This document shows positions 6,246 to 42,873 of a stretch of 64,000 nucleotides of DNA, piece after piece. Numbering within the stretch: position 1 is the stretch's first letter; each line of letters opens with the position of its first letter. The notes beneath the pieces are model-generated. The model was not told the DNA's origin. It saw nothing but the letters and a program-made list of their open reading frames with translations, and ran no database searches. The DNA lies in assembly GCA_021777565.1 (NCBI GenBank), contig JAJYDJ010000002.1, forward strand, positions 69,082 to 133,081, given 5' to 3'. The position numbers were made by a program, and so were the translations under genes. This DNA is from a bacterium. Lineage in GTDB: Bacteria > Patescibacteriota > Microgenomatia > Levybacterales > UBA12049.

Positions 6246-6246
6246 T

Positions 6247-10804: not shown

Positions 10805-11124
10805 TGTTTGCAAAACCTTTTCGCCTCACTCTTGGCAGACAAAAAATTCTTGGTCAGAGATTCACGTCCCCTACTCTTTCTCTTGTCGTTTCAGATAATG
10901 GTCTCGAGCATAATAGGTATGCCTGTCTTGTGACTAAAAAAGTAGACAAGAGAGCAGTCATTCGTAATCGAATCAGAAGGCTTGTTATTTCAGAACTCCA
11001 GGCGAAACATCTCCAAATTCACCCCAGACATGATCTTTTTTTTATGGCAAAAGTAACACAACAAGATGAAAAACAAATCCAAAGTGATGTCTCATCTCTT
11101 CTTGAACAAGCTCATCTGTTATGA
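10804..11124 (+). CDS. rnpA: RNase P protein component
   Basis: MFAKPFRLTLGRQ...VTKKVDKRAVIRNRIRRL is the RnpA pattern. Its ATG overlaps the rpmH stop (TAATG), the classical rpmH-rnpA arrangement. Confidence 0.85.
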   Translation: MFAKPFRLTLGRQKILGQRFTSPTLSLVVSDNGLEHNRYACLVTKKVDKRAVIRNRIRRLVISELQAKHLQIHPRHDLFFMAKVTQQDEKQIQSDVSSLLEQAHLL

Positions 11125-11333
11125 AATATTTTTTTATTGCCAGTATCTGGATTTATCATGTTATCCTCTCCCCTATTCTTCGTAGTATTGTAGGAACAAA
11201 AAATGTCTGTCGATATACTCCTTCCTGCTCAGAATATGCTCTCGAGCGTTTACAAAAAGACGGGATCAAAAGTCTTCCTGATATTACTCGTCGTTTGCTC
11301 TCGTGTCATCCTTTTGGTACAATACAAAAGTGA
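11121..11333 (+). CDS. yidD: Membrane protein insertion efficiency factor YidD
   Basis: CRYTPSCSEYALE...RRLLSCHPFG is the YidD signature. Confidence 0.8.
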   Translation: MKYFFIASIWIYHVILSPILRSIVGTKNVCRYTPSCSEYALERLQKDGIKSLPDITRRLLSCHPFGTIQK

Positions 11334-12157
11334 AAATAACTGGCATCTTTGCAACTCCTGTTCTTGGCCCAATTACTATCCTTCTAACCAATTTCCTTTT
11401 GATTTTTTATCATGGGTTTGTTTTTGCTAATATTCCTTATGCGCTTGGGTTTTCCATTATTGCGCTGACTTTGTTTTTTAGAATTGTTCTATATCCATTT
11501 ACTGCATCTCAAATCAGAACATCCGTAAAAATGCAAAAAATTGCTCCTCATGTGAATAAGCTCAAAGAACTCCATAAAAATGATTCCAAAAAACTGCAGG
11601 AAGAAACAATGAAACTCTATAAAGAACACGGGGTTAATCCTGCTGCAGGATGTCTGCCTATGATTATCCAGCTTCCCTTTATCTGGGCACTGTATGCGCT
11701 CCTGCAATATGTGGTAAAAACAGCCCCAACACAGGTGCTAACCGCGGTAAATAATGTCGTGTATTTCCCTTTCTTGAAGCTTCCCATGGTATGGGATCAG
11801 CACTTCTTTGGCCTTTCTCTTGGTCAAGCCCCTGCAGACATGTTCAAGCATGGGATGGTATGGATTTTGATCTTCCCAGCACTTACTGCGGCGTTACAGT
11901 TTATTCAATCAAAAATGATGTTTAACACTCCTGCTCCAGAGCCAGGGGCGCAAAAGAAAGACGACCTTTCTAGTGCAATGCAAACTCAATCTCTGTATAT
12001 CTTCCCAATCATGATTGGATTCTTCTCATATACCCTTCCATTTGGTCTCACTCTCTACTGGAATACGTTCACACTTTTTGGTATACTACAACAGTACTTA
12101 GTTGCAGGATGGGGTGGACTTGAATCCCACATTGAGAAATTCCTGCGAAGAAAATAA
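11303..12157 (+). CDS. yidC: Membrane protein insertase YidC (short form)
   Basis: The Oxa1/YidC core is present: ...GCLPMIIQLPFIWALYAL..., with 5 TM helices, in the conserved rnpA-yidD-yidC-jag order. Confidence 0.85.
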   Translation: MSSFWYNTKVKITGIFATPVLGPITILLTNFLLIFYHGFVFANIPYALGFSIIALTLFFRIVLYPFTASQIRTSVKMQKIAPHVNKLKELHKNDSKKLQEETMKLYKEHGVNPAAGCLPMIIQLPFIWALYALLQYVVKTAPTQVLTAVNNVVYFPFLKLPMVWDQHFFGLSLGQAPADMFKHGMVWILIFPALTAALQFIQSKMMFNTPAPEPGAQKKDDLSSAMQTQSLYIFPIMIGFFSYTLPFGLTLYWNTFTLFGILQQYLVAGWGGLESHIEKFLRRK

Positions 12158-12602: not shown

Positions 12603-13785
12603 GCTTCTAGAATATTCTTTTTTTCTTCTTATTTTTTGTTTTCCCATACAACTTGGTAAACATTTTTGGCCCTCATGGAGTTATCTACATGGAGTGAGAC
12701 TTGATTACCTCTCCCCCACACTCTACCTTACCGATATCCTGTCGCTTGTTGTGATCATCCTAGGAAGTATCACTCTGTATAAGACGTCACTTTATAAGTT
12801 CTCTCCTCGATCGCTTGTTTTAGGTGCCTTTTTATTGGTCAGCACAAGTATCAGTATTGCACTGTCATCAAACCCTTTTTTTGGATGGTATGAAATCATA
12901 AAAGGATTCGAATTTGTTTGTTTATTCCTTGTAGCAAAAAATCTTTTCAAAGATAAAAAAATACTAAGTACAAGTATTGTGATTTTGGTTGTAAGTTTGT
13001 TTTTGCAAATTGCACTCGCAAGTTATCAAGTTTTTTTTGCACATAGCGCGGGAGGACTTTTTTGGCTTCTTGGGGAAAGAACATTTGATGTAAGCACTCC
13101 AGGAATTGCACGTGATTCTCTTTCAGGCGTGTTACTTCTTCGTGGATATGGGACCTTTGCACATCCAAATGTTTTTGCGGGATACGTGGTTATTGTGGGC
13201 ATTGCAGCATGGTTTCTTTTTGGGGAAAGTAGATTGCGCTCTGCTCTCCTTTCATTACTCAGTCTTGGCCTCTTAGTAAGTATGAGCCGATTCCCACTTC
13301 TCCTGTGGGTCACATTCCTTACAACCGTCTCGCGCGGCACAGGAAAGATACTGTTTGGTTCCCTTTTTGTTTTGTTCATAGGTCTCCTACTACTTTTTAA
13401 TCCTCTTTCAGATCCGTCTCTTGCCGCAAGATTCGTGTATGTTCAAGACGTGTTTTATCACATCCAAAAGTATCCTCTATTTGGAATGGGGTTCGGAAAT
13501 TTTCTTGCTTTACCGGCGAGATTGGAGGCTGGAATAGGGCTTCCACAACCCGTACACAATGTTTTTCTTCTTATCTTGGATAGTCTTGGAATAGTGGGAT
13601 TTTCTCTTGTCTTAGTAGTGCTGTTTAAAACATTTCAGACCGCAAAAAAAGATAGGATGTCACTTCTGCTTTTTCTTGCCTGGATTGCGCTGGGGAGTTT
13701 TGACCATTATCTTTTGTCTCTTCAGCAGGGTCAACTGCTGACCACCCTTGTTTTTGCACTCATTTGGAGAGAGAATACGGTATGA
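12529..13785 (+). CDS. O-antigen ligase / Wzy-like polytopic membrane protein
   Basis: There are about 10-12 TM helices and a large outward loop containing a conserved His (GYGTFAHPNVFAGY). The start is uncertain: the ORF has no internal Met after the overlap with jag. Confidence 0.5.
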   Translation: MIQKLVPNQKEKVVTALSQFIQKHKLLEYSFFLLIFCFPIQLGKHFWPSWSYLHGVRLDYLSPTLYLTDILSLVVIILGSITLYKTSLYKFSPRSLVLGAFLLVSTSISIALSSNPFFGWYEIIKGFEFVCLFLVAKNLFKDKKILSTSIVILVVSLFLQIALASYQVFFAHSAGGLFWLLGERTFDVSTPGIARDSLSGVLLLRGYGTFAHPNVFAGYVVIVGIAAWFLFGESRLRSALLSLLSLGLLVSMSRFPLLLWVTFLTTVSRGTGKILFGSLFVLFIGLLLLFNPLSDPSLAARFVYVQDVFYHIQKYPLFGMGFGNFLALPARLEAGIGLPQPVHNVFLLILDSLGIVGFSLVLVVLFKTFQTAKKDRMSLLLFLAWIALGSFDHYLLSLQQGQLLTTLVFALIWRENTV

Positions 13786-14216
13786 ATGTCATCCTTATTC
13801 GAACTGATGGAGGATCACGAGGAAACCCTGGTCCAGCAGCCTCAGGGTATGTGATTGAGAAGGACGAGAATGTTATCGCTTCAGAAGGATATCCACTCGG
13901 TGACACAACCAATAATGTTGCTGAATATACTGCCGTGCTTCGTGCCTTTACTTGGTTAGCCTCACATCGGGAATCGATCGGGGATATTTCGGGAATAGAC
14001 CTCCGCATGGATAGCCTCCTTGTGTGCCAGCAGCTTAACGGCGTGTATAAAATAACCAAACCTCATTTACAGGAGATTTATGCTCAGATACAGGCACTTA
14101 TGAAGCAATTCCAGGTGCCAATTACCATAAAGCATGTGTACCGGGAAGAAAACACAAAGGCTGACTGGTTGGTGAACCTTGCGCTAGACAGTAAGATGAC
14201 GGTTTCTCTACAATAA
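13782..14216 (+). CDS. rnhA: Ribonuclease HI
   Basis: MNVILIRTDGGSRGNPGPAASGYVI...NNVAEYTA...N..AD is the RNase H catalytic pattern. Confidence 0.8.
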   Translation: MNVILIRTDGGSRGNPGPAASGYVIEKDENVIASEGYPLGDTTNNVAEYTAVLRAFTWLASHRESIGDISGIDLRMDSLLVCQQLNGVYKITKPHLQEIYAQIQALMKQFQVPITIKHVYREENTKADWLVNLALDSKMTVSLQ

Positions 14217-14220: not shown

Positions 14221-16884
14221 GTGTCTGCCCCAACAATTACACCAGAAACACAATCCATGGCGCCAATCCTTATTGTTGATAAGGGAGGGTTTTGGGGGGA
14301 GAGAATAGCCGATATTCTCAAGGATTTCTCTCAGGTAGTCCTGGTGTCCCCTCAGGAAAACGAGGCTACAGTCAACCCACTCTTCGTAAAATTTCATGAA
14401 AACATACCACAAATACCATCCGATAATTATTCACACGTGATTATTTTCTGGGATGGGGACAGTGTGACAAAGTTGCTTGTTGAGGCAAGTTTGGAGAAGG
14501 CTAAGGCAGACAATGCACGGATGCTTGTGTTTTTTACACAGAGCACATGGAACAGTGATATCGCGGCAGTGGTGAGACAGCACGGGGGAGTGGTTGGGGT
14601 TATTGGAGATGTATTTGGATCAGGGAGTAGTAGTCTTGCCCACGTACCACTAGATCATTACATTGTTGATGCAAAGAAAAAACATGGTGTCGAGCTTGCA
14701 GATATGGGACTTGTGACGAGAATGCCTATCTCATACAGTGAGACAGTAAAAGCACTCCTGACTCTCATCTTCCAGGAAGATAAACCTGCGCAGATACAAC
14801 TTCTCTACCCAGCAATCCCGACAACTGAATTGGGCTTTTTAAATGCACTAAAAAAGATTGACCCTGAGATTGGAATACGATTTCTTCCAAAAAAAGACTT
14901 GCCGACAACAAGAGAGATACCAGGTGTCTATGTACTCAATGACATTACTGATCCATTGAAAGAACTCCCTGACGTATATGCGCATACGGAAGTCACAAAA
15001 GAGGAAATAGCGGAGTTTGAGGAGCAGGTAAGACAAATGCAACCACCAGCGATAGTAAAGCATATAAAAAAACAAAAGCCGGTAGGGAAATGGTTTGTCT
15101 GGATGGTGAGTACGACGATCCTACTTAGTATTTTTGCCCCGTTGTTACTTCTCTTGGGGGCAGGGGGTTTTTTTCTCTCAGCAAAAAATGCAATTGAGTC
15201 GGGGAATGTTAAACAGAGTATCCAAAGCTTAACGCGAGGAGTGCAGTTAATAGATGGATACCAGGTTACTAGTTCGCCATGGCTACGATTGGCAACAAAT
15301 ATCTTGCCGCAAATACTTCCTTTGTCAGATCGGATCAATGGACTGTCAGTGGTAGGCAATAGTGCTCTGACGATCATGAGTTCTGCGGAAGGTATGACAC
15401 AATCTGGTGGGTATGCATCAGTAAACCTTTCTGAAGTGGGAGCAGTGAGCCGTCTTGGGATACAGCAGTTGCTAACAAATCAATGGCTTGCAGGAGAAAA
15501 AAAGAACTTTTCAATCACTGATATAAACACAACCCTCAGCGCACTTTCTCTTTTGCCTGTCATGGCTCCGCAACAGGGAACAAAACACTATCTTATTCTT
15601 TTCCAGAACAATGCAGAGCTGAGGCCGGGTGGTGGATTTATCGGTTCATACGCCATAGCAGATGTTACTAATGGGCAGTTGGCAAATCTTGATATTAAGG
15701 ATGTCTATGACGCTGATGGACAATTGAAGGGGCATGTTGAGCCACCATTTTTCTATCGACGATATCTGGCGCAACCTCACTTGTATCTGAGAGATAGCAA
15801 TTATGAATTTGATTTTCCAACGAACGCGCAGCATGCAGAGAGCATGCTCCACGCAGAACTTGGTCAGGATGTGGATGGAGTCATTGGCGTTGATCTTTTT
15901 GTTGTACAAGGCTTGTTGCAAGCGGTTGGCCCGGTCTATATTCCAGATTTTCAGGAAACTGTTACTGCAGACACATTCTTTCAACAAGCAGAGTCTCATT
16001 CTCAGGACAATTTCTTTGCAGGGTCCACACAAAAGAAAGATTACTTAGGAAGTGTTGTTCGTGCCCTTATGCCTAAACTCTCAGAGCAGGGGAACATGCT
16101 TTCGCTATCACGTGAACTTTTGAGTCTTGTCCAGAAAAAGCATATTCAGATATATAGTAATGATCAGGCGGCACTGGATATTCTCACCGCATCACATATG
16201 TCAGGTTCAGTTTGGGATGGAAGACCAAAAGGTGCAGGAAGATTAAATGACACGTTGTTTGTTAATGAAGCAAATGTTGGCGTGAACAAAGCGAATCAAG
16301 CAGTTACACGCACGCTTGATCAGACACTCATCGCCAGCAGTGACGGCACACTCTCAGACCAGGTTGTGCTTCAGATACAAAACACTAACCAAGAGGCGAG
16401 CGCTGCTGCAGGCATGTACACGAGTTACGTCCGTTTCCTTATCCCAGATGGTTCTACCCTTAGTACTATTGCTATTGATGGTGGGCTGCAACATGTCGTG
16501 CTTGCCGTGACTGATCCAAAGATATATGAAGGGAAAACATTTAAAGTTGATCCTATGGTGCTAGAAGTGAATCAAACGAGCGAGTTTGGAAAGAAAAGTA
16601 TTGGATTCTTGATCCGTGTTCCACAAAACACCACACAAAACATTCAACTAACGTATCAGCTTCCTTGGAGACTGACCTCTGCACAATCTCTGTTAACGTA
16701 CTCACAGCAACTGATAAAGCAATCTGGTATCGAAAGTATCCCGTATACCTTCCACACCCAATTTAATGGACTCTTTCACGCACTTACCAGTGATGCAGGG
16801 AAGCCAAACAGTGATGGAAGTCTTGAGAAGGCAATTGATTTACAATCAGATGTGACATTTACTTTCCCACTGGCAAGAAATTAA
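14221..16884 (+). CDS. Large bitopic membrane protein: N-terminal cytoplasmic domain (about 285 aa), one TM helix, then an extracytoplasmic DUF4012-like domain
   Basis: The TM helix is WFVWMVSTTILLSIFAPLLLLLGAGGFFLSA. YLILFQNNAELRPGGGFIGSYAIADVTNGQL matches my recollection of the DUF4012 core motif. Confidence 0.45.
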   Translation: MSAPTITPETQSMAPILIVDKGGFWGERIADILKDFSQVVLVSPQENEATVNPLFVKFHENIPQIPSDNYSHVIIFWDGDSVTKLLVEASLEKAKADNARMLVFFTQSTWNSDIAAVVRQHGGVVGVIGDVFGSGSSSLAHVPLDHYIVDAKKKHGVELADMGLVTRMPISYSETVKALLTLIFQEDKPAQIQLLYPAIPTTELGFLNALKKIDPEIGIRFLPKKDLPTTREIPGVYVLNDITDPLKELPDVYAHTEVTKEEIAEFEEQVRQMQPPAIVKHIKKQKPVGKWFVWMVSTTILLSIFAPLLLLLGAGGFFLSAKNAIESGNVKQSIQSLTRGVQLIDGYQVTSSPWLRLATNILPQILPLSDRINGLSVVGNSALTIMSSAEGMTQSGGYASVNLSEVGAVSRLGIQQLLTNQWLAGEKKNFSITDINTTLSALSLLPVMAPQQGTKHYLILFQNNAELRPGGGFIGSYAIADVTNGQLANLDIKDVYDADGQLKGHVEPPFFYRRYLAQPHLYLRDSNYEFDFPTNAQHAESMLHAELGQDVDGVIGVDLFVVQGLLQAVGPVYIPDFQETVTADTFFQQAESHSQDNFFAGSTQKKDYLGSVVRALMPKLSEQGNMLSLSRELLSLVQKKHIQIYSNDQAALDILTASHMSGSVWDGRPKGAGRLNDTLFVNEANVGVNKANQAVTRTLDQTLIASSDGTLSDQVVLQIQNTNQEASAAAGMYTSYVRFLIPDGSTLSTIAIDGGLQHVVLAVTDPKIYEGKTFKVDPMVLEVNQTSEFGKKSIGFLIRVPQNTTQNIQLTYQLPWRLTSAQSLLTYSQQLIKQSGIESIPYTFHTQFNGLFHALTSDAGKPNSDGSLEKAIDLQSDVTFTFPLARN

Positions 16885-26501: not shown

Positions 26502-27376
26502 TACTTCTCAAAAGCAAACATCATCAACTCAAACCTCACGAACACCAAACTATCACACTTACTGATGGGAGACTTTTGGGATTTGCAGAATATGGTGATC
26601 CAAAAGGGAGCCCATTATTTTATTTCCATGGGTGGCCAGGCTCACGACTTCGTATATCATCCCTTGATGAGGATGCAAAAGCAGCCGGGATTCGCATGAT
26701 TAGTCTTGATAGACCCGGGTATGGCCTCTCTACGTATAAAAAGGAGAGACAACTGCTTGATTGGCCAGATGATGTTACTGCCCTCGCCGATCATCTCAAG
26801 ATAAAAAAATTTGCTATTGCTGGAATATCGGGAGGAGGGCCATATGCGGCCGTGTGCGCATACAAGATCCCAGAAAGGCTCACGAAAGTAGGTATCGTAG
26901 TAGGACTTGCTCCAACATATGTGCCAGGTGTTTTGAGTGACATGCCACTTGCTTATAAGGCAGGGTGGGCAAATTACGCAAAGTCACCAGTAATCGCCCA
27001 TATTGGTTCATCATTTCATCATTTAGCTGTCAAATTCCCTTTGGGATTATCTGATCCATTCTCTCCAAAAGTAGATAGAAATGTTATTGGTCCACAGCGC
27101 AAAGAGTCTTTAGTCAGTCTTCGCGAGGCATTCCGACAAGGGAGAAAAGGTCCGGCGCGGGATCTTATGATTTATAGCAAAGACTGGGGATTTGATTTGA
27201 GGGATATTCATGTACCAGTGCATCTTTGGTATGCACAAAAAGACAAAAATGTTCCTGTGACGATGGGTGAATATTACCACAAACAAATTAAGGGAAGTAC
27301 GCTTGTGATATACCCACAAGAAGGTCACATGGTATCCATAACGCACGCAAAAGAAATATTTGAAGTACTCTCTTAA
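26498..27376 (+). CDS. Alpha/beta-fold hydrolase (proline-iminopeptidase-like)
   Basis: HGWPGS and the nucleophile elbow GISGGG are present. Confidence 0.6.
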   Translation: MILLKSKHHQLKPHEHQTITLTDGRLLGFAEYGDPKGSPLFYFHGWPGSRLRISSLDEDAKAAGIRMISLDRPGYGLSTYKKERQLLDWPDDVTALADHLKIKKFAIAGISGGGPYAAVCAYKIPERLTKVGIVVGLAPTYVPGVLSDMPLAYKAGWANYAKSPVIAHIGSSFHHLAVKFPLGLSDPFSPKVDRNVIGPQRKESLVSLREAFRQGRKGPARDLMIYSKDWGFDLRDIHVPVHLWYAQKDKNVPVTMGEYYHKQIKGSTLVIYPQEGHMVSITHAKEIFEVLS

Positions 27377-29724
27377 AGAGTAAGATGGAATATCTCCTGT
27401 AAGAAAGGTGTAAAAGTAAGTAAACATTGGAGCAAGATAGTAAGAATTGCTGTCCCAATAAGAAACATATTTGAAAATATTTTTTGCTTTCCACGCACAA
27501 CAAAAACAAGAACAATTTCCATAACGATTAAAAAGTTAAAGACAACTGTTCGTGCGATAGAGACTCCAAGAACATGATCTAACTGCGAGAAGAGGAAGAA
27601 GCAAAGGCTGGCAAGAAAGGTCCCTGCCGTCAGGACAAATATGAGCCTTTTACTTGTTAAGAAATGATCGCGTATTGCATGGGGATGGCTATTTTTTAGC
27701 ACACCATCGTGGGGATCATTAGCAAGTGCAAGGGCTGGAAGTCCATCAGTAATAAGGTTGATCCAGAGAATTTGTGTGGGCAGAAGTGGCATGTCTGTAT
27801 TGCCAAAGGTGGCAAACATCACGAGTAGGAGTTCTCCTAAATTGCCACTGACAAGATAAGTAATTGCTTTCACGACGTTGGCATATATTCTTCTTCCTTC
27901 ATGAACCGCAGAAACAATGGTTGCAAAGTTATCATCCTGAAGGACAATATCACTTGCTTCACGCGCGACATCGGTCCCTTTTTCTCCCATCGCGAGTCCA
28001 ACATTTGCTTGTTTCAGGGCGAGGGCATCATTCACTCCATCACCAGTAACCCCAACCAGGTGGCCAGCGCTTTGAAATGCTTTTACTAGGCGAAGTTTAT
28101 GTTCCGGCGTTGTCCTTGCAAAGAGATTTGTTGTTTCAATAGTCTGCAAAAGATCGGCATCATTCATCTCATCAATCTCGCTCCCTGTTACAACATGAGA
28201 AGATTTTTGTGTGATGCCAACATCCTGCGCAATTGACTCAGCCGTGAGGGGATTGTCTCCTGTAACCATAACAACACGAATACCAGAATTGTGCGCATCA
28301 TCTACCGCCTGTTTTGCCTCCTTACGAGGAGGATCGTAAAGACAAAGAAATCCTAAGAAGGTTAAGTTCTCCTCAATCTCCGTTCGGGAAAATTTTTTGC
28401 CCTTAGTAATTCCTTTTTGTGCTGCAGCAATAACACGCAGCCCTTTTGCTGCATACGATTGATAGCGCCTTGTTAAAGATTCTTTTTCACTTTCAGAAAT
28501 ACGACACATGTTCAGAATACTCTCTGGAGCGCCACGGGAGATGACTAATGTTTTTTTGTGATACGATGCTATCGTTGTAATACTTTTTGTTTTGGGATTA
28601 AAAGTGTATTCATCAATAATCTCGATTGGTTCATCGATATATTCGTTCCCTTGTTCAGTAGCCCAGAGAAGGAGTGCCCCATCTGTCTTATCTCCAATGA
28701 TGCGTGGTTGTCCGTGTTGGTCAGTTATATGGGCAGTGTTACCGATCATACATGCGTGAATTAGCTCATGTAAAAACTTCTTTTGCGGCACCCAAACATC
28801 TTTAACTTTCATATCGTTTTGAGTAATTGTCCCGGTTTTATCTGTCAGGATAACCGTAATTGCGCCAATAGTCTCTATACTGGAAAGTCGCCTCACAATT
28901 GCATGCTTTTGTGCCATGCGGTTGGTCCCCAAAGAGAGTGCAATAGTTATAACAACAGGCAGGCTCTCTGGGATTGCGGCAACGCTGATACTAATAACCA
29001 ATAAAATAAGGGGATACAAGTCTTTGCCATAGGCGATGCCTGCAGGAAGGATAAGGAGGGCCATTAAAAGGGCGAATAAAGAAAGGATACGGGTAAGTCC
29101 TGAAATCTGGTGCTGGAGTGGTGTTTCTTCCTCGGTGACGGTGCCAAGCGTGGTAGAGATTTGCCCAAGCTTGGTTGTTTTACCTATTTTGACAACCTCC
29201 ATCACCCCTTTCCCCTTTGCAACAAAGGTCCCCATTAATACCTCCTCCTGAATAGACTTTGAGACCGGAAGCGATTCTCCAGTTACCAGTGATTCATCAA
29301 TTTCAATTTGGGTAGCCCGTTTTAAAAATCCATCTGCAGGGATGCGGTCTCCCTCGTTAAGTATGACGATGTCCCCTGGAACAAGTTGACTACTTTCTGT
29401 CTCAAATGTTTTTCCATTTCGAATAACAACGCAGCGAGGTTGAGAAAATTGTTTAAGTTTTTCAATTGCTTTTTCTGCTTTAAATTCTTGATAGAAACCT
29501 AACGTTGCACTTAGAAGAACAATAAAAAGGATGAATATACCATCCAGTGGTTCATGAATGGCAAATGAGAAGAGAGCACCCAGAGCAAGAATGCCATTGA
29601 TAAGTGTAGGGAACTGTCTTAAAAAGAGTTTTTGTGTCGTAAATCTTCTCTCAACAGATAATGCATTCTCCCCAAAAGTGTTTCGCAGCTTTAAATAGTC
29701 TTCGTTGCTGAGACCTCGTTCCAT
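27373..29724 (-). CDS. P-type cation-transporting ATPase (type II, Ca2+/Mg2+-like)
   Basis: DKTGTITQN, TGDNPLTA and GDGVNDALALK are the P-type motifs. Confidence 0.9.
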   Translation of the reverse strand: MERGLSNEDYLKLRNTFGENALSVERRFTTQKLFLRQFPTLINGILALGALFSFAIHEPLDGIFILFIVLLSATLGFYQEFKAEKAIEKLKQFSQPRCVVIRNGKTFETESSQLVPGDIVILNEGDRIPADGFLKRATQIEIDESLVTGESLPVSKSIQEEVLMGTFVAKGKGVMEVVKIGKTTKLGQISTTLGTVTEEETPLQHQISGLTRILSLFALLMALLILPAGIAYGKDLYPLILLVISISVAAIPESLPVVITIALSLGTNRMAQKHAIVRRLSSIETIGAITVILTDKTGTITQNDMKVKDVWVPQKKFLHELIHACMIGNTAHITDQHGQPRIIGDKTDGALLLWATEQGNEYIDEPIEIIDEYTFNPKTKSITTIASYHKKTLVISRGAPESILNMCRISESEKESLTRRYQSYAAKGLRVIAAAQKGITKGKKFSRTEIEENLTFLGFLCLYDPPRKEAKQAVDDAHNSGIRVVMVTGDNPLTAESIAQDVGITQKSSHVVTGSEIDEMNDADLLQTIETTNLFARTTPEHKLRLVKAFQSAGHLVGVTGDGVNDALALKQANVGLAMGEKGTDVAREASDIVLQDDNFATIVSAVHEGRRIYANVVKAITYLVSGNLGELLLVMFATFGNTDMPLLPTQILWINLITDGLPALALANDPHDGVLKNSHPHAIRDHFLTSKRLIFVLTAGTFLASLCFFLFSQLDHVLGVSIARTVVFNFLIVMEIVLVFVVRGKQKIFSNMFLIGTAILTILLQCLLTFTPFLQEIFHLTL

Positions 29725-34404: not shown

Positions 34405-34479
34405 AGGTGTTTGTATCATAACACAATTTTCTGTTGCATTTGCAATGCACCAAGCGAATGGTACAATGAGCCTAACTTT

Positions 34480-36237
34480 ATGGATAATGTGAGTACGGTA
34501 CGCGAGAGAACGGATATTGTTCAATTAATTGGAAGTTTTATTACCTTGAAAAAAATGGGTGGAAATTTTAAAGCACCTTGTCCATTTCATCAGGAAAAAA
34601 CCCCATCTTTTGTCGTCTCCCCAGAAAGACAAATCTGGCATTGTTTTGGCTGTCAAAAAGGAGGAGACGTATTTACCTTCATCATGGAATATGAGCATGT
34701 GGAATTCCCTGAGGCACTCAAAATTCTCGCAGACAGAGCGGGGATTACACTACAAAACAACTTTGATAGTAAAAATGCATCCAAGAGAGAACTTTTGCTA
34801 GAGATAAATCGATTGGCAGGAGAATATTATCATTTTCTTTTGACCAAACACGCTGTTGGTGAGAAAGCACGAGAGTATCTCAAAAAACGTGGGATCAATG
34901 AAAAACTTTGGGAAACATTTCAAATAGGTTTTGCTCCCAAAGGAGCAAATTTATATCAGTATCTTACCCAAAAAAAGCACCTTCATCCCCAGGACATTGC
35001 TGATGCAGGACTCAGTGCTGGTATGAGAAAAAATATGGATTTCTTTCAAAACAGGCTAACCTTTGCCCTCTGTGACCATCGTGGTAATATTTTGGGCTTC
35101 TCAGGAAGGGCAATTGATACAGATTTTTTTGGAGGCAAGTATATTAATACACGTGAGACAGATATCTATCACAAGGGTGAGGCCTGTTTCGGTCTCAATA
35201 TTACAAAGGATGAAATCAAAAAGAAAAATCAGGTCATGGTGATGGAAGGAGAATTTGATGTTATGAGTTCTTTCCAGGAGGGAGTAGGGAATGTCATTGC
35301 TTTAAAAGGAACCGCATTTACCAAAATGCAGGCGAAGCTTTTGAAGCGCTTTTGTAATAAAGTTACCCTGTGTCTGGACATGGATAGTGCGGGACAGGAT
35401 GCTCTGCGTAGAAGTGTCCCTGTGCTTGAAGAGGAAGATATGACGATTACAGCTGTGGTACTCCCTAGCGGGAAAGACCCTGATGAGCTTGCTCGTGAAG
35501 ATCCGATTGCCTTAAGAAAGGCACTAGAGGATGATTCGCCAATTTATGATGTCCTCTTGCAGCAATTTATGCATCTTTTTGATGGGAAGACGATCGAAGG
35601 GAAAAAACAGATTTCATCACAGTTCCTCTCTTATCTTACGACAGTGCAAAATGAAGTGGTGAAGGATCACTATCTCAAGCTTTTAGGAAAATCACTTGAT
35701 GTCTCAGTGGAGGTACTGATGCGGGAGTTTGAGAAAGCTCAAAGGGTACAGTCTCTTGGGAAGGATACTCCTATGGTGGTCAGTGAAGAGAAAAAATCTC
35801 GTCAGGACATGCTGGAGGAATACACGCTTGCGATACTTGTGCAACAATCCCAGCCTCAAATGATTATTCGAGCCCAGCAAGAGCTGTTTTCACGACTTTC
35901 TTGGCATATCCCTTCCCGAGGCAAGCTTATACAGTCATTACTGAGTTTGACTGACTATCAGCCAGCTCAGTTTGCATCTACTCTGGCCTCAGAGTTGGTC
36001 CCTGTCTTTGATATGGCTTTTTTGCAGCCGATAGCTTCATTTACTCAGGATGAAGCTGAGAAAGAGTGTGTAAAAAGTGTAAAGGAGCTCATCTCATTAT
36101 CTCTCAGACAGCAGATGAAAGAGGTCTCTGAGGAGATACAGGTTCAAGAAAAGGCGAATAATGAAGAAAAAATCGCTCAACTGGAGGAACAACTATCGAA
36201 AATTATGCAAGAAATTGCCCATATTGAAAAGCCGTAG
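34480..36237 (+). CDS. dnaG: DNA primase
   Basis: The zinc ribbon CPFHQEKTPSF...HCFGCQKGGD and a TOPRIM region are present. The start was chosen at MDNVSTV to leave a divergent promoter with glmS. Confidence 0.9.
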   Translation: MDNVSTVRERTDIVQLIGSFITLKKMGGNFKAPCPFHQEKTPSFVVSPERQIWHCFGCQKGGDVFTFIMEYEHVEFPEALKILADRAGITLQNNFDSKNASKRELLLEINRLAGEYYHFLLTKHAVGEKAREYLKKRGINEKLWETFQIGFAPKGANLYQYLTQKKHLHPQDIADAGLSAGMRKNMDFFQNRLTFALCDHRGNILGFSGRAIDTDFFGGKYINTRETDIYHKGEACFGLNITKDEIKKKNQVMVMEGEFDVMSSFQEGVGNVIALKGTAFTKMQAKLLKRFCNKVTLCLDMDSAGQDALRRSVPVLEEEDMTITAVVLPSGKDPDELAREDPIALRKALEDDSPIYDVLLQQFMHLFDGKTIEGKKQISSQFLSYLTTVQNEVVKDHYLKLLGKSLDVSVEVLMREFEKAQRVQSLGKDTPMVVSEEKKSRQDMLEEYTLAILVQQSQPQMIIRAQQELFSRLSWHIPSRGKLIQSLLSLTDYQPAQFASTLASELVPVFDMAFLQPIASFTQDEAEKECVKSVKELISLSLRQQMKEVSEEIQVQEKANNEEKIAQLEEQLSKIMQEIAHIEKP

Positions 36238-36270: not shown

Positions 36271-37353
36271 ATGCAAAAGGCCCCACCAGTTGTCAATGAT
36301 ATTACTACGTCTGCAAAGAAGAGGGGATATATTACCCAAGAAGAAATTTTAAATATTTTTGCTAAGCCTGAAGAGCATCTTGAAGAGCTTGATGAATTGT
36401 ATGCAAAGCTCCTAGCAATGGACATTGATGTCTTTGAGTCAACTGCCCAACAGGATGACACTACAAAACCTATTGCCGATCTTGAAAAAGAATTAGAAGC
36501 ACTGACGGTGTTGACTGAAGGATCAGTTTCAGACCCAGTGAGAATGTATCTAAAAGAGATCGGACGGATTCCACTTTTGACATTTGATCAAGAAATAGAA
36601 TTGGCTAAAAAGGTAGAAAAAGGTGATGAAGTAGCAAAACAAAAACTTACAACTGCCAATCTTCGATTGGTTGTCTCTATTGCAAAAAAATATGTTGGGA
36701 GAGGACTGACCTTGTTGGATTTGATTCAAGAAGGGAACCAAGGACTTATTCGTGCTGTTGAGAAATATGATTGGCGAAGAGGATTTAAGTTCTCAACGTA
36801 TGCCACTTGGTGGATTCGACAGTCAATTACTCGTGCTATTGCTGACCAGGCTCGTACTATTAGAATTCCTGTTCATATGGTAGAAAACATTAATCGCTTT
36901 TTGAGAATGTCTCGAAAGTTGATGCAGGATTTGGGCCGCGAACCAACCCCTGAGGAAGTAGCAAAAGCACTTGGTATTGATGCAGAGAAAGCAATGGAAA
37001 TTATCAAGATTTCTCAAGAGCCAGCAAGTCTTGAAATGAGTATTGGTGATGAAGACGATAGTAGACTAGGAGATTTTATCTCAGATACGACTAAACCTAC
37101 CCTTTTTGATGAAGCTTCGCGTGAGCTTCTTAAAGAACAAGTAGAAAAAGTGCTTGAGTCTCTGTCAGAGCGTGAAAGAAGAGTCCTTGAAGAGCGATTT
37201 GGGCTCAGAGATGGCAAACCAAAGACTTTGGAAGAAGTTGGTAAGTTATTTGCGGTTACCCGTGAACGTATTCGACAGATTGAAGCAAAAGCGCTGCGGA
37301 AATTGCGCCATCCGACCCGTGCGCACCTCCTAAAAGACTATCTTGAATCATAA
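36271..37353 (+). CDS. rpoD: RNA polymerase primary sigma factor (short, lacks region 1.1)
   Basis: [30 protein letters not shown] and region 4 are present, in dnaG-rpoD operon order. Confidence 0.95.
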
Positions 37354-37391: not shown

Positions 37392-37841
37392 ATGATCACA
37401 AAAATGATTGCCCCTCTTGTCAGCATGCTTCCTGCAACTCCAGTTTACGCACATTGTGATGTTCCTTGTGGGATCTATGACCCAAAACCAGCCCAAATTG
37501 CTGCAGCAACAGTATTGAAGATGGTTCAGAAGCTTGCTGCACTTACCCCACCAAATCCAAGTTCGACGCCACAGGATATTCTTAATTATCAAAATGACAC
37601 AACGCGCATGATCTGGACGAAAGAGGAGCATGCACGCAAATGCAAAACTGAACTCTACATCCTTTGGTCAGATTATTTTAAACCAGAGCATCTCGAAAAG
37701 TTCCCTGATTTACACACAAAATTCTGGACTGCAGTAAAATTGTGCAGCGAAAATAAGCAACATGTCAGTGAAGAATCTGCACAGAAGTTGATTGCTGCTG
37801 TTGATGAAATTGCTCAGATGTTTGTTGAGAGCAAGAAATAA
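37392..37841 (+). CDS. sodN: Nickel-containing superoxide dismutase precursor
   Basis: A propeptide is followed by the Ni-hook HCDVPCGIYDP (H-C-x-x-P-C-G-x-Y), which becomes the mature N-terminus after cleavage. Confidence 0.8.
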   Translation: MITKMIAPLVSMLPATPVYAHCDVPCGIYDPKPAQIAAATVLKMVQKLAALTPPNPSSTPQDILNYQNDTTRMIWTKEEHARKCKTELYILWSDYFKPEHLEKFPDLHTKFWTAVKLCSENKQHVSEESAQKLIAAVDEIAQMFVESKK

Positions 37842-37846
37842 CTCCT

Positions 37847-38149
37847 GTGAAATTTCTTCCATTTGGTATCTTCAAAGTTGTTGGCACGAGTATGTCCCCA
37901 CTCTATACCCCCGGGATGCGTATCCTTGTTTGGAGATGGTTCCGTTTACTAAAACCAGGTGATGTTGTTGTACTTTCTGATCCCCGAGATGGGAGAAGGA
38001 TCGTTAAAAGAGTTGAGAAAATACTTGATGGGGATCTAGAAGAAAAATATCATGTTCTTGGTGATAATAAAAATGAGAGCACAGACAGTCGTGTCTTTGG
38101 GCCTGTCTCAAAAGAATCTATCTTGGGAAAAGTTGTTTGGCACGGATAG
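37847..38149 (+). CDS. sodX: NiSOD maturation peptidase SodX (signal-peptidase-I / S26-like)
   Basis: GTSMSP (Ser nucleophile), a KR motif (IVKRV) and GDN...S.DSR are present. It lies immediately downstream of sodN. Confidence 0.7.
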   Translation: MKFLPFGIFKVVGTSMSPLYTPGMRILVWRWFRLLKPGDVVVLSDPRDGRRIVKRVEKILDGDLEEKYHVLGDNKNESTDSRVFGPVSKESILGKVVWHG

Positions 38150-38150: not shown

Positions 38151-39164
38151 TTACTTCTTTACGCGCAGAAGAATGTAGCGAAACGTGTCAGCGAAACGGT
38201 ACAGTTGATACAAGAAGGGTGATACCACCAGATCATAACTTCCCACAAACGTGTAGATATGTGACCCATATCGGACTTTAAAATCATGAAACCCATACCA
38301 AGGATCTTTTGGGTCAGCATCAGGGCCAAGCGAACCCCACATGTCAAAAAGCTCACAGTGCTGTTTCTTCCCAAACCGTATCACTTCCCACATCATTAAA
38401 TTTGGTGCCATAACATTGCGGAATTCTCTCGTAGAGTCGCCATAGGGATAGTACATCTTCTCTTTGAAAAGAAAGATGATCCATGTTGCAAGCGTTTTTT
38501 TTTCGTACATGGCCTTGAATAAATGAGCACTGAGCACATCATTGTGAGGCTCATGTGAGAGGGTTTCCCACATTTTTTTGAAATAGTTCTCAGAGTGGGC
38601 AAAAAAACCCTGTCGTTTAGTTGTTTCCTCCATGAGTGTCCAGAAGGTGTGGAGTGCTTCATCTGAATTGTCTTCAACGATTTCAACACCATGGCGCTGT
38701 GCCACCTTGATGTTATATCGCGTTTTGGGATGCATATTTTCCATGAGTGCCTTCTCATCAGGAGTCAGATCCAGAAGTAGTGTGTGCTGGGGGAAAAGTG
38801 GGTGGTGTGATGGTGTACACCCAAGACCGTGCATCAATGTCTTATTCTCTTTGCTGCTTGGCGCGTCAGGCTCAATTTGTATAAAAATACATTTATGTTT
38901 TTCTCCAATCCGTTTAAGTTGCTCAATGCTTTCTCTGTCAGGTAGTACTGACTTTGGATAGTAGCCTATTGTATAAGGAAGGCGTGGAATGGGATGAATA
39001 GTCAATTGTATTGTTTTGACAAGTTTTTTTTTCTCAAATTTCCCCATTCTTACTACTTTTACCCCTGTTTTTTCACGAAAAAGCCCCCATGAAGAGGTTT
39101 GCAATGGATGGTTTGCTATCTTGTCCATTGCTCCAAAATCTTTTTCAGTAATTTCTTGCCACAT
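38151..39164 (-). CDS. FemAB/FemX-family peptidoglycan interpeptide-bridge aminoacyltransferase
   Basis: The N-terminus ...PLQTSSWGLFREKTGVKVVRM matches the FemAB LQS..W...K pattern. Its size fits the family. Confidence 0.65.
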   Translation of the reverse strand: MWQEITEKDFGAMDKIANHPLQTSSWGLFREKTGVKVVRMGKFEKKKLVKTIQLTIHPIPRLPYTIGYYPKSVLPDRESIEQLKRIGEKHKCIFIQIEPDAPSSKENKTLMHGLGCTPSHHPLFPQHTLLLDLTPDEKALMENMHPKTRYNIKVAQRHGVEIVEDNSDEALHTFWTLMEETTKRQGFFAHSENYFKKMWETLSHEPHNDVLSAHLFKAMYEKKTLATWIIFLFKEKMYYPYGDSTREFRNVMAPNLMMWEVIRFGKKQHCELFDMWGSLGPDADPKDPWYGFHDFKVRYGSHIYTFVGSYDLVVSPFLYQLYRFADTFRYILLRVKK

Positions 39165-39165
39165 A

Positions 39166-41007
39166 TTAAAAATACTCTGGGTAAATATCGTCGTCGTATC
39201 TCTCTGTATTATATTTCATACTGTTCATACGTTGCACACCAGTTTTTGGTAAGTCCAGTAAAAAGCGAGAGATGATGCTGGTAGTTCTTTGGCCAAAAAA
39301 GAGGCGTTTTCGTGCGTAGGTCAAAAAAAGTTTCTTTTTTGCTCGCGTAATCCCTACATACGCAAGGCGTCTTTCTTCCTCAATCTCCTGTTTGTCCATA
39401 AGTGATCTGCTATGGGGGAAAATCCCTTCCTCCATCCCTATCATGAAGACAATTGGGAATTCCAACCCTTTTGCCGCGTGAAGGGTCATAAACGTGACGG
39501 CGTCAGTCTCTACCAGTCCGGGGGCACTTTCTTGCTCAACAAGTGAAACATTTTCAAGAAATTCAGTCAGCAGGGGGAACATACTCGCAACAGAGCGGAG
39601 TTCTTTAATGTTTTCAAGCCTTGCCCTGTCTTCTTCATCGTGTTCGTCATACATATCAAGGTAATTGGTTGCCGCAATCACCTCATCAAGAATATCTAAG
39701 GTCTGTTTCCCTGAAATGCCAGCAATACTTTCACAATAGTCTAAGAATTTTTTTGTTCTTCCCTTTCCAAGCTTCTCAACACGCTTGAAAGAGACACTGT
39801 CTTGTGGATTAGCAATACTGCGTAGTAAGCTCAAAACGTCTTTGACTTCTTTTCTCTCATAAAATCTGGTGCCTCCGACTAATTTATAAGGGATGCCATA
39901 ATGTAAAAAAACTTCTTCAAGAGCGCGTGATTGAGCATTCATGCGATACAACACTGCAATGTCGCTGAGATCACCGGCATGTTCTTTGACGTATTTGGCA
40001 ATAAACAGTGCTTCATCTTGCTCTGTCCCACATTCATGAACAATAACATCTTCTCCTTCGCCATTTTCAGTCCATAGATGAAGAATTGGATGGGATGTGT
40101 TTTTTTCAATGACGTTGGTGGCGGCATTTAAAATTTTTTGGGTTGATCGATAATTTTGAGAAAGTTTATAGACTTTTGCAGTAGGGAAATCTGATTGGAA
40201 TTTTTGCAAATTGGTAAAATCAGCACCACGCCAGGAGTAAATACTCTGAGAGAAATCGCCGACAACGCACAGGTTTTTTCTCTCTCCGGCAAGGAGTCGT
40301 GCAATCATGTATTGGGCTTTATTCGTATCCTGATACTCATCAATGAGGATATAGTGAAAAGTCTCTTGGTATTTTTTTAGAATCTGAGGAAAATTCTCAA
40401 AAAGGTTCACGACAAGCATGAGAAGATCATCGAAATCAACAGCATTTTTCTCTTTAAGAAGCCTTTGATAGGTTCGATATACTAACCCGGCCGTCTCTTG
40501 ATAATGGCCTCTGGCAATCTCAGAGAATTCTTGGGGACCCAGTAGCTCGTTTTTGGCTCCTGAAATAGTAGCCAGCATGCTCCCAGGCTTATATTCTTTA
40601 GTAGAAATATCAAGAAAATGCATGGCTTCTTTAATGACGTCTTCCTGATCTGATGAATCATAGATGCTGAAAGCAGTTTCATATCCAAGGTGATTGGCGT
40701 AGATACGTAATATTCGTGCACATAATGAATGGAATGTCGCTACAAGAGGTTTATCACTGGTAACCTGTTGCTCTCTAAGAAGTGTGTGGATACGTTCCTG
40801 CATCTCCTTGGCAGCCTTATTTGTAAACGTGACCGCCAGGATTTCATTTGCCGATACATGATGATTGGCAATAAGGTATGCGACCCGATGGGTAAGAACT
40901 TTTGTCTTTCCACTGCCTGCTCCCGCCAAAATAATACAAGGGCCATCTGTATGTGTTACTGCTTCTTGTTGATCTTGATTAAGCTGCTTGAGAAGTGAAT
41001 CATTCAT
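39166..41007 (-). CDS. pcrA: ATP-dependent DNA helicase PcrA/UvrD
   Basis: AGAGSGKTKVLTHRVAYLI...AVTFTNKAA and helicase motifs II-VI are present. The start was chosen at MNDSLLKQ to avoid a divergent overlap with tpiA. Confidence 0.9.
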   Translation of the reverse strand: MNDSLLKQLNQDQQEAVTHTDGPCIILAGAGSGKTKVLTHRVAYLIANHHVSANEILAVTFTNKAAKEMQERIHTLLREQQVTSDKPLVATFHSLCARILRIYANHLGYETAFSIYDSSDQEDVIKEAMHFLDISTKEYKPGSMLATISGAKNELLGPQEFSEIARGHYQETAGLVYRTYQRLLKEKNAVDFDDLLMLVVNLFENFPQILKKYQETFHYILIDEYQDTNKAQYMIARLLAGERKNLCVVGDFSQSIYSWRGADFTNLQKFQSDFPTAKVYKLSQNYRSTQKILNAATNVIEKNTSHPILHLWTENGEGEDVIVHECGTEQDEALFIAKYVKEHAGDLSDIAVLYRMNAQSRALEEVFLHYGIPYKLVGGTRFYERKEVKDVLSLLRSIANPQDSVSFKRVEKLGKGRTKKFLDYCESIAGISGKQTLDILDEVIAATNYLDMYDEHDEEDRARLENIKELRSVASMFPLLTEFLENVSLVEQESAPGLVETDAVTFMTLHAAKGLEFPIVFMIGMEEGIFPHSRSLMDKQEIEEERRLAYVGITRAKKKLFLTYARKRLFFGQRTTSIISRFLLDLPKTGVQRMNSMKYNTERYDDDIYPEYF

Positions 41008-41048
41008 AGATATAATGAAAAGACGATAGCCTCGTACCCTATTGTACC

Positions 41049-41702
41049 ATGAAGCCACTTGTTATTATTGCGAATTGGAAATCACATAAAACGTCTGCAG
41101 AGGCACTTTCCTGGTGGCAGGTCTTTTCAGAGAAGCATCAACCAGATACGACGATAATTATTCTTGCCGTGCCTTATACACTCCTCCCTATTCTTGCGCC
41201 TGTTGTTTCCAGTCGACCCGATGTCTTTTTGGCAGCACAAGATATGTCTCCGTTTGATGAAAGTGCTCATACAGGAGAGGTGTCTGGGCAGCAAATTAAA
41301 GAATTTGCAAAATATGTCCTCATTGGCCATTCAGAAGTGAGAAAAGAGACTGGAGAAACAGTAGATATGCGCAGGCAAAAGATCCTGCAGGCTCAAGTCT
41401 CAGGGTTGACCCCTTTTGTTTTCTACGGTGGAACTGACGATACGTTATTGCAGTCGCCATTTCTTGTCTATGAACCGCCTGGTGCGATCAGTCCAAACCC
41501 TCCTGAGACACCAGAGGAGGTTGCCCGTATGACAGAGGCAATGCATCTATCATCACCCGAATCAAGGATACTCTATGGTGGTAATGTCACCCCAGAGAAT
41601 GTAAAATCTTATGTGACGCTGCCCCTTGTTGAAGGGGTTGTTATCGGGCGAGCGAGTCTGGACCCACTTGAGTTTTTGGAACTAATAGCACATGCACAAT
41701 AG
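41049..41702 (+). CDS. tpiA: Triosephosphate isomerase (short form)
   Basis: The start IIANWKSHKT, the His region VLIGHSEVR and YEPPGAI are present. Confidence 0.75.
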   Translation: MKPLVIIANWKSHKTSAEALSWWQVFSEKHQPDTTIIILAVPYTLLPILAPVVSSRPDVFLAAQDMSPFDESAHTGEVSGQQIKEFAKYVLIGHSEVRKETGETVDMRRQKILQAQVSGLTPFVFYGGTDDTLLQSPFLVYEPPGAISPNPPETPEEVARMTEAMHLSSPESRILYGGNVTPENVKSYVTLPLVEGVVIGRASLDPLEFLELIAHAQ

Positions 41703-42873
41703 ACGCAAAAGACGATGGATTCCACTTGTTGTGACACTCCTTGTTGTAGGGGTTATTGGTTATGCTCTCTTCCAGACTATCAACCACCCGGGGAAAGTTA
41801 TGCAATTGGTGACTGGGAAAAAATCACTGATTGCAGAAGTGAATGGGAGAACAAACGTGCTGCTTCTTGGAATTGGTGGAGGCAATCATGATGGTCCTAA
41901 TTTGACGGACACAATCATGTTGGCATCTCTGGACCGAGCGACAAATGATGTAACACTCGTCTCTATCCCACGTGATCTTTGGACTGTAGATAGTAATGGC
42001 AACGGAGGTAAGATCAACAGAATGTATGCGGTCGGGCAGGAAGTAGATAACCCCAAAGATGGTCTTTTTCTTGCTTCACAAACGGTTACTCAGGTGACAG
42101 GACAACCTATTCAATACGCATTTCGACTCGATTTTGATGGATTCACAAAAGTAATTAATCTCCTTGGTGGCATTGATGTACAGGTGGAGCGAACGCTTGA
42201 TGATTATGCCTACCCAATTGAAGGGAAAGAAGATGATACCTGTGGATATACGCCAGATCAACTCAAGGAATTCGCCGCTCAAATTGCCTCAGGGAGCGCA
42301 GATGATACCGCGATTTTTAGTTGCCGATACATGCATCTGCATGTTGATAAAGGGTTACAACATATGGATGGAGATCTTGCTCTTCGATTTGTCAGATCTC
42401 GACATGCTGCCGGTCCTGAAGGGACAGACTTTGCCAGAAGTCATAGGCAACAGCTTGTTATTGAAGCGGTACGAAATAAAATTTTCTCCATAGGGACTCT
42501 CACGGATATAAATAAGCTAATGGGCTTGTATAACATTGTTCAGAGCAGTATTGATACCAATATCCCACAAAATACGATCCCAGAATGGGTAGATATTCTT
42601 AGGGGTATGCAAAAGACTGCAATCCATACGGCTGTCATTGACTTTGGAGATAGTGACACCGGAAGATATGGATTGTTGGATTTGGCACCAATAGAGGCAC
42701 AATATAACTATGGATCAGTATTAATTCCTCGTCTTGGAGGTACGGATTACTCGGAGATTCATGCCTTTGTTACCTGCGAACTTGCGACTGGGAACTGCCC
42801 AATTGGGCCAACACCATTTGCAAGTCCTGAACCAACGGCAACTCCAAGTGGAACTCTAAAGCAGGCAAAGTAA
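41692..42873 (+). CDS. LytR-CpsA-Psr (LCP) family cell-wall glycopolymer ligase
   Basis: An N-terminal TM anchor is followed by LLLGIGGGNHDGPNLTDTIMLASLD...VSIPRDLW. Confidence 0.85.
   Translation: MHNRRKRRWIPLVVTLLVVGVIGYALFQTINHPGKVMQLVTGKKSLIAEVNGRTNVLLLGIGGGNHDGPNLTDTIMLASLDRATNDVTLVSIPRDLWTVDSNGNGGKINRMYAVGQEVDNPKDGLFLASQTVTQVTGQPIQYAFRLDFDGFTKVINLLGGIDVQVERTLDDYAYPIEGKEDDTCGYTPDQLKEFAAQIASGSADDTAIFSCRYMHLHVDKGLQHMDGDLALRFVRSRHAAGPEGTDFARSHRQQLVIEAVRNKIFSIGTLTDINKLMGLYNIVQSSIDTNIPQNTIPEWVDILRGMQKTAIHTAVIDFGDSDTGRYGLLDLAPIEAQYNYGSVLIPRLGGTDYSEIHAFVTCELATGNCPIGPTPFASPEPTATPSGTLKQAK

Follow-up and report, generated by a model that had tools for sequence, protein, structure and literature searches.

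The window analysed here (the whole stretch of 64,000 nucleotides, whose positions are used throughout) carries two adjacent genes, sodN and sodX, for a nickel superoxide dismutase (NiSOD) and its putative maturation protease. We consider it very probable that this pair is a canonical sodN-sodX cassette, i.e., that it provides a processed, Ni-loaded, cytoplasmic NiSOD and has been inherited vertically, at a conserved place in the chromosome, within Levybacteria-like members of the candidate phyla radiation (CPR). As far as can be judged from sequence, the first open reading frame (ORF) is intact and encodes an ordinary nickel superoxide dismutase, and the second encodes a dedicated NiSOD maturation protease, SodX, predicted to cleave pre-SodN. 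Both ORFs lie exactly where the original prediction had put them, at 37392-38149 (37392-37841 and 37847-38149, plus strand). The first gene comprises the following features:

37392-37841, plus strand: sodN, NiSOD precursor of 149 amino acids (aa), with an ATG start, passing the curated NiSOD models
37392-37451, plus strand: propeptide MITKMIAPLVSMLPATPVYA, 20 residues (16 from the ATG at 37404), with a cut predicted before His21 from the alignment and the Ala at position -1
37452-37838, plus strand: mature NiSOD of 129 aa, folded as a four-helix bundle according to structure alignments and an AlphaFold2 (AF2) model
37452-37478, plus strand: Ni-hook HCDVPCGIY, residues 21-29, in which conservation marks His1, Cys2 and Cys6 of the mature protein as the predicted Ni ligands, together with Asp3 and Tyr9

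The assignment of sodN rests on agreement between profile, sequence and structure searches. Against Pfam PF09055 Sod_Ni the protein scores 153.1 bits (E=7e-45, cut-off 25), and against the NCBIfam equivalog model TIGR02753 sodN it scores 176 bits (E=5e-52, cut-off 90), the latter match spanning protein residues 1-149, leader included, and model positions 1-144 of 145. Given these E-values from profile hidden Markov models, and that of 1e-19 for sodX, chance is excluded. A sequence search of solved structures (phmmer) returned the Streptomyces NiSOD entries as the sole matches (1Q0D and others, E=1e-19). The AF2 model of SodN, built with 50 homologues, has a mean predicted local distance difference test score (pLDDT) of 91.9 and a predicted template-modelling (TM) score, pTM, of 0.78; when it was compared with the PDB by Foldseek, the best 16 matches were all NiSOD chains (target-normalised TM 0.86-0.92, E from 1e-7 to 3e-6), the first match other than NiSOD had E=0.14, and NiSOD structures were the sole PDB matches with E<0.1. 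The predicted structure thus has the right-handed four-helix-bundle fold of NiSOD, and 13 residues are inserted between its helices 1 and 2 as compared to the Streptomyces enzyme. The core motif LWSDYFKPEH is conserved in the window protein, and the wider framework R..K/LW.D.FK..H is invariant in 80 related species-level loci (the best 80, at 51-68% identity, of 326 loci with a SodN relative that were collected from one genome per GTDB species). In the alignment of the 50 homologues, 37 positions are invariant and 32 nearly so. An alternative start, the ATG at 37404, would yield a product of 145 aa and is used in one public gene call.

The original prediction derived the NiSOD identity from the Ni-hook and the cleavable propeptide before it, and made it a condition that the propeptide site be compatible with a mature His1; the identity is borne out, and the site suits such an N-terminus. 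The sequence HCDVPCGIYDP occupies SodN residues 21-31, with the His21 codon at 37452-37454, so that the N-terminus reads MITKMIAPLVSMLPATPVYA|HCDVPCGIYDPKPAQ..., and in the alignment His21 falls on the first residue of the mature Streptomyces NiSOD that was crystallised (1Q0D). Within the hook, H1, C2, D3, P5, C6, G7 and Y9 are invariant in all 80 related loci, as they are in the 50-homologue alignment, and the Streptomyces enzyme has the same residues. Of the 120 database proteins closest to SodN, 119 carry the pattern HCD[VI]PCGIYD; Ala stands at position -1 in 119 of 119, and position -3 is small or aliphatic, mainly V/A/I, among these 119 homologues. In the window, the propeptide ends with V-Y-A directly before His21, a site that suits an S26 peptidase and at which, by analogy with studied relatives, SodN would be cut between Ala20 and His21.

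A gap of 5 nt separates the second gene from the sodN stop codon:

37847-38149, plus strand: sodX, putative NiSOD maturation protease of the S26 family, 100 aa, with a GTG start, assigned by TIGR02754
37889-37891, plus strand: codon of Ser15, the predicted nucleophile, within a G-T-S-M-S-P motif whose S15, M16 and P18 are invariant or nearly so in SodX of related loci
38006-38008, plus strand: codon of Lys54, the predicted general base, in a K-R box; all 70 loci with SodX have K54

The best-scoring model for this protein is TIGR02754, nickel-type superoxide dismutase maturation protease (70.6 bits, E=1e-19, cut-off 63.25), which covers residues 10-98 and model positions 2-90 of 90; the Pfam family Peptidase_S26 gives 60.9 bits. 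With the Ser/Lys dyad kept, the proposal that the downstream S26-like peptidase is SodX is supported. When SodX is aligned with solved signal peptidase I, Ser15 coincides with the SM-P box, and Ser15, Met16 and Pro18 are present in 69-70 of the 70 related loci; a GDNxxxSxDSR box follows at residues 72-82, where conservation reaches 90% or more at G72, N74, S78, D80 and S81. These conservation figures were taken from the ORFs downstream of sodN in related loci, the word-based homologue search having returned just 6 proteins. Since just 14 residues precede the nucleophile, SodX has no N-terminal membrane anchor of the LepB type, and it is also devoid of the large inserted beta-domain of LepB-type enzymes that P0128-P0130 have. 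A public call of this gene (P0125, 85 aa) starts at Met16 and omits the Ser15 nucleophile; because such a start would drop the catalytic Ser, the GTG at 37847 is taken as the functional one. In one related locus (L082), the gene caller skipped sodX and called a 49-aa ORF instead.

The way in which the two proteins may work together can be envisaged from the precedents of Streptomyces and Prochlorococcus, on which our view of cleavage, nickel loading, activity and oligomeric state relies. SodN would be made as a precursor of 149 aa (or 145 aa), and SodX, a small soluble Ser/Lys peptidase of the S26 family, would cut it after Ala20, making His21 the new N-terminus. The amine and imidazole of His1, the amide and thiolate of Cys2 and the thiolate of Cys6 would then fold round Ni(II/III) as the Ni-hook, and the mature four-helix-bundle enzyme, presumably a homohexamer, would cycle between Ni(II) and Ni(III), dismutating superoxide in the cytoplasm. 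The processing of NiSOD and the chemistry of the Ni-hook have been described earlier (Eitinger 2004; Barondeau 2004, as cited in PMC8346466).

The genes around the cassette bear on its history:

34411-36237, plus strand: dnaG, assigned by Pfam families
36271-37353, plus strand: rpoD, assigned by Pfam families
38151-42873, mixed strands: conserved downstream neighbourhood, made up of a FemAB-family gene (minus), a uvrD/pcrA-like helicase gene (minus), tpiA (plus) and a LytR_cpsA_psr gene (plus)

As the original prediction had it, the pair sits directly after dnaG-rpoD, on the same strand and with a 38 nt gap between rpoD and sodN; dnaG-rpoD is context and lies outside the sodN-sodX system. A consensus scan called no promoter-like or terminator-like site in this gap. 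A sequence TTGACA-17 nt-TACCTT that ends 5 nt before the sodN ATG was seen by eye; it fails the criteria of the scan and is not relied upon. Going by the Streptomyces and Prochlorococcus precedents, sodN-sodX may be co-transcribed with dnaG-rpoD. On the other side, the FemAB-family gene (38151-39164, minus strand) converges on sodX at a distance of 1 nt. The GC content of sodN (0.418) and sodX (0.416) is at the level of the neighbouring genes, and their GC3 values (0.373 and 0.327, respectively) are within the distribution for the window (mean 0.364, standard deviation 0.034).

Homologues of SodN are numerous: a word-indexed search yielded 4127 of them at E<=1e-3, and an exhaustive search of 50%-identity representatives yielded 783 NiSOD clusters. 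The best 80 loci include 16 from Levybacteria, 5 from Daviesbacteria, 11 labelled 'Patescibacteria group' and 3 from Chloroflexota, along with several single lineages of the Parcubacteria group, Saccharimonadia, and 34 loci titled 'uncultured Gammaproteobacteria'. Almost all of the 80 are judged to be Patescibacteria. The latter records, 'uncultured Gammaproteobacteria bacterium', are TPA_asm metagenome-assembled genomes (MAGs; L001, L005, L007, L011, L014, L016, L019, L020, L023, L025 and others); as 19 of the 34 show the Levybacteria-type order sodN-sodX-FemAB-UvrD-TIM-LytR, their titles are probably placeholders or wrong taxonomy, and their SodN sequences nest among those of Levybacteria. 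In 70 of the 80 loci, sodN is followed immediately by a sodX homologue. FemAB (minus) lies downstream of the pair in 42 and is joined by UvrD (minus) in 36, most such loci keeping TIM (plus) too and many keeping LytR (plus); among the Levybacteria-labelled loci, this downstream neighbourhood is seen in 15 of 16. The upstream linkage to dnaG-rpoD is peculiar to this genome, the only other locus of the 80 with rpoD within 6 kb being L051, where it is on the opposite strand. In Levybacteria and Daviesbacteria the cassette is widespread and keeps its gene order, and it is also found in Parcubacteria and Saccharimonadia; the rarity implied by the original prediction was overstated, as NiSOD and SodX are common in Levybacteria, Daviesbacteria and other Patescibacteria and have already been annotated automatically. 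Several further genes recur around sodN in the relatives. In 41 of the 80 loci, sodX is followed by a third same-strand ORF of ~175-216 aa with a hydrophobic N-terminus (e.g. L012, 6751-7401, plus strand), which shows sub-threshold methyltransferase-like Pfam matches only and is missing in the window, where sodX abuts FemAB; this ORF may be an accessory of the cassette. In 12 related loci (e.g. L072, 2814-3788), sodN is closely preceded by a TrxB-like gene (Pyr_redox_2), and in 7 an RNase H-like gene is found upstream of sodN.

In a rough neighbour-joining (NJ) tree of NiSOD, calculated without support values, the window sequence and all Levybacteria and Daviesbacteria sequences form one tight Microgenomates clade, the nearest neighbours of which are a Parcubacteria/Saccharibacteria group, a sequence from Limnocylindria and a cluster from Acidimicrobiia (P0142); the representatives with HCDLPCGVY and HCDGPCGVY hooks branch apart from it. 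As the downstream gene order is kept, the composition is native and the window sequence is nested in the Microgenomates clade, the data point to an old, vertical inheritance of sodN-sodX within Levybacteria and not to a recent transfer. A recent horizontal acquisition by this genome from a donor outside the CPR, be it an actinobacterium, a cyanobacterium or a marine proteobacterium, would accord with the patchy occurrence of NiSOD across bacteria, with the closeness of Chloroflexota (L063, L071, L077) and of the Acidimicrobiia cluster to the CPR sequences, and with an upstream dnaG-rpoD linkage that relatives do not share. Such an event is, however, very unlikely, considering the native GC and GC3, the same downstream neighbourhood in 36-42 related species-level loci, and the position of the window sequence within its clade, at 59-68% identity as compared to ~35-39% to Streptomyces (the tree being an NJ tree without support values); the original prediction had suggested testing for horizontal acquisition. 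A transfer far back in time, either to a CPR ancestor or from one, is possible.

Several observations weigh against a functional canonical cassette. Biochemical data for any CPR NiSOD were not found in the literature searched. SodX also clears the model that ranks next after TIGR02754, the generic TIGR02227 sigpep_I_bact for signal peptidase I (63.5 bits against a cut-off of 47), and the AF2 model of SodX, whose structural matches are S26 signal peptidases and LexA/UmuD, a related fold, is of only moderate confidence (pLDDT 68.5). Neither the 64-kb window nor the ~10 kb on either side of it showed NikABCDE, NiCoT, HupE/UreJ or CbiMNQO (~44 large ORFs of the window were compared with Pfam and precomputed Pfam calls were used past each end, ~84 kb in total). 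Finally, the second-sphere residues Glu17 and Arg47 of the Streptomyces enzyme are replaced in SodN by Ala17 and His60. The TIGR02227 score, taken with the fact that the closest solved structures to SodX are signal peptidases, could be read to mean that the downstream gene stands beside sodN by chance and that its product is a LepB/SipS-like type I signal peptidase of the general kind. The probability of this is very small: TIGR02754 scores best and over its cut-off, a protein of 100 aa with 14 residues before the Ser has no room for an anchor and lacks the large inserted beta-domain, and a homologue adjoins sodN in 70 of 80 loci. If, instead, the 20-residue leader were a Sec-type signal peptide, NiSOD would be exported and would guard the cell surface or the host interface, which would suit the host-attached life of CPR cells described in the literature; the leader indeed has a basic K4, then the mostly hydrophobic MIAPLVSMLPA and a V-Y-A motif. 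Yet the hydrophobic stretch is short and interrupted by a Ser and two Pro, leaders alike in length and kind are found across the NiSOD family, cytoplasmic precedents included, TIGR02753 models the leader from position 1, and SodX, having no membrane anchor, should act in the cytoplasm, which makes export a shade less probable still. Least probable of these explanations is a decaying or non-functional remnant, with the hook kept and the enzyme inactive, e.g. for want of nickel. The lack of a Ni transporter in the ~84 kb examined and the non-conservation of Glu17 and Arg47 would speak for it, but both ORFs are intact, 37 positions are invariant and 32 nearly invariant among the 50 homologues, and the catalytic residues of SodN and SodX are invariant across 70-80 species-level loci. 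The invariance of these catalytic residues and of many other positions indicates purifying selection.

A closer look at the second-sphere residues shows where the window protein belongs within the NiSOD family. In Streptomyces NiSOD, the Glu17/Arg47 pair hydrogen-bonds His1. Among the representatives, this pair is limited to those with the HCDLPCGVY hook, Ala/His being the commonest state elsewhere, and the states co-vary across the family. Since most non-actinobacterial representatives have a replacement of the Ala17/His60 type, its presence here is not a defect peculiar to this gene. The window protein does not have the pair that distinguishes the actinobacterial (Streptomyces) subtype; with Ala17 and His60 present, and the Glu17/Arg47 pair restricted to the Streptomyces-type hook, it falls into the non-actinobacterial long form. 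Compared to Streptomyces, there are also two extra conserved cysteines, mature Cys64 (80 of 80 loci) and Cys98 (71 of 80); do they form a disulfide or a second metal site? The idea that the loss of Glu17/Arg47 and the extra cysteines are a CPR-specific novelty was rejected, as both traits are common to many non-actinobacterial representatives. Together, Ala17/His60 and the extra cysteines mark the 'long' NiSOD subtype.

When a nickel enzyme is proposed for a small cell, the supply of the metal has to be considered. The nickel uptake that the original prediction regarded as a corollary of NiSOD was looked for in the window and ~10 kb on either side of it, and no recognised Ni importer was present there; that the host organism acquires nickel is what we infer. 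In the relatives, no transporter genes were found among the recurrent ORFs when those within ~4 kb of sodN were clustered across the 80 loci; what recurred was a small membrane protein (41 loci) and the TrxB-like gene (12 loci). The sole candidate for metal transport in the window is a P2-type cation ATPase of 783 aa (27373-29724, minus strand; Cation_ATPase_N and Cation_ATPase_C), which is Ca/Mg-like and, as it has no heavy-metal-binding domain, not an obvious route for nickel. Elsewhere in the CPR, nickel is listed among the substrates of metal-ion transporters in representative groundwater MAGs, and work on the CorA Mg/Ni/Co transporter is cited there (PMC8672522). No second superoxide dismutase (SOD) was found in the window or ~10 kb on either side. 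A trxA-trxB pair lies ~6 kb past the right end of the window in the same genome (L083, 15996-17250). The TrxB-like genes nearby fit an oxidative-stress role, and genes of redox defence tend to cluster.

The window is part of a contig of 953,194 nt in public assemblies (ENA ERZ27236897, k141_2336031, ~69,118-133,117), and the host is supported as a Levybacteria-like member of CPR/Patescibacteria, in keeping with the CPR-like genome of the original prediction. The named proteins related to its LepA, at 62-72% identity, come nearly all from the Patescibacteria group, Levybacteria, Parcubacteria or Saccharimonadales, with one Eisenbacteria title; the set of genes is in line with this, and the narrower placement follows from the gene order common to 15 of the 16 Levybacteria-labelled loci. 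The window encodes PGK, TIM and a DeoC-type aldolase, MurJ and FemAB, type IV pilus parts and several PMT_2/DUF2298 membrane proteins; scans of the window for Rfam families and tRNA genes found none, so that it has no rRNA or tRNA genes. The replication origin region is at 8009-12157, where dnaN (8009-9109, minus strand) and dnaA (9240-10622, minus strand) face rpmH-rnpA-yidD-yidC (~10.6-12.2 kb, plus strand); the GC skew switches sign at ~10-12 kb, and the coincidence of dnaA and dnaN with this change marks the origin. To the left of it, at 1085-8028, is a CPR-type cluster resembling a type IV secretion system (T4SS), with T4SS_pilin ORFs at 1085-2959 and 3490-3933, two further small ones in the interval, a TraC-like gene at 5685-6245 and a gene for a TraG P-loop ATPase at 6247-8028; it resembles the Patescibacteria T4SS of bioRxiv 10.1101/2025.01.22.634366. 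A small RNase H/RVT_3-like ORF (13764-14216) is followed directly by a gene for an 887-aa DUF4012 protein (14221-16884).

What does the cassette mean for the biology of these bacteria? The gene pair itself is textbook sodN/sodX and adds nothing new to NiSOD biology. Its novelty is taxonomic and modest: how broadly the cassette occurs in Microgenomates, and with what synteny, is under-reported, even if a specialist would hardly be surprised. CPR homologues already bear names such as 'superoxide dismutase, Ni [Candidatus Daviesbacteria bacterium]' in NCBI. A published survey of sodN lists the phyla that bear the gene, and CPR is not among them (PMC8346466); CPR papers single out only the Fe/Mn SOD (PMC8672522, PMC10172142), and the preprint version of PMC8672522 names sodN solely inside a list of SOD genes. 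In the searchable open literature, no paper was found that mentions NiSOD together with CPR terms. For a Levybacteria-like organism, sodN-sodX is a reliable marker of superoxide exposure and indicates a need for trace nickel despite a genome of ~0.95 Mb. One may go further and speculate, although we regard this as rather doubtful, that NiSOD with SodX, and not an Fe/Mn SOD, is the ancestral and possibly the sole superoxide defence of a whole class-level CPR clade (Levybacteria and other Microgenomates), held at a fixed chromosomal position. If so, ancestral NiSOD in Microgenomates would imply a nickel requirement and regular exposure to oxygen in presumed anaerobic fermenters, a requirement that would have gone unrecognised because SOD surveys omit CPR and CPR papers single out Fe/Mn SOD. 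A census of sodN could refine 'SOD presence' as an indicator that CPR organisms are exposed to oxygen and could point to nickel as a nutrient that episymbionts draw from their host or the environment.

Among the known systems, the cassette can be compared with three. The NiSOD of Streptomyces coelicolor and S. seoulensis (1T6U, 1Q0D), with its SodX, has the same hook, H-C-D-x-P-C-G-x-Y-D-P, beginning with the first mature residue, a short propeptide whose last residue is Ala, the four-helix bundle (TM 0.86-0.92), the LWSDYFKP.H motif and an adjacent gene for an S26-type protease. It differs in sequence (~35-39% identity in structure alignments), the window protein having the 13-residue insertion, Ala17, His60 and Cys64/Cys98. 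The Streptomyces leader is 14 aa long, and that of the window protein 20. Regulation of the Streptomyces enzyme involves Nur or a sodF small RNA (PMC3919588).

The cyanobacterial and marine NiSODs with SodX, such as that of Prochlorococcus marinus MIT9313, share the long form, Ala17, a leader of ~20 residues and a sodX gene directly downstream, and they occur in small-genome hosts where NiSOD can be the only SOD. Their hook, however, reads HCDGPCGVY and not HCDVPCGIY, the position of Arg47 is mostly occupied by Gln/Glu, as compared to His60 in the window, they form a separate NJ branch, and the host of the window is a non-photosynthetic CPR bacterium. The HCDGPCGVY representatives are presumably cyanobacterial/marine, taken to be so in part from a Tara member of cluster P0141. 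In P. marinus MIT9313, sodX is needed for NiSOD activity upon heterologous expression (Eitinger 2004, reported in PMC8346466).

The third comparison is with the Fe/Mn SODs of CPR bacteria, such as SodFM1 of Wolfebacteria (PMC10172142) and K04564 in groundwater Patescibacteria (PMC8672522). These enzymes have the same role, the removal of superoxide in ultrasmall bacteria with reduced genomes, and they have been put forward as markers for the exposure of CPR to oxygen; in contrast to NiSOD, they have an unrelated fold, a different metal and a different maturation, SodFM needing neither a protease nor a propeptide.

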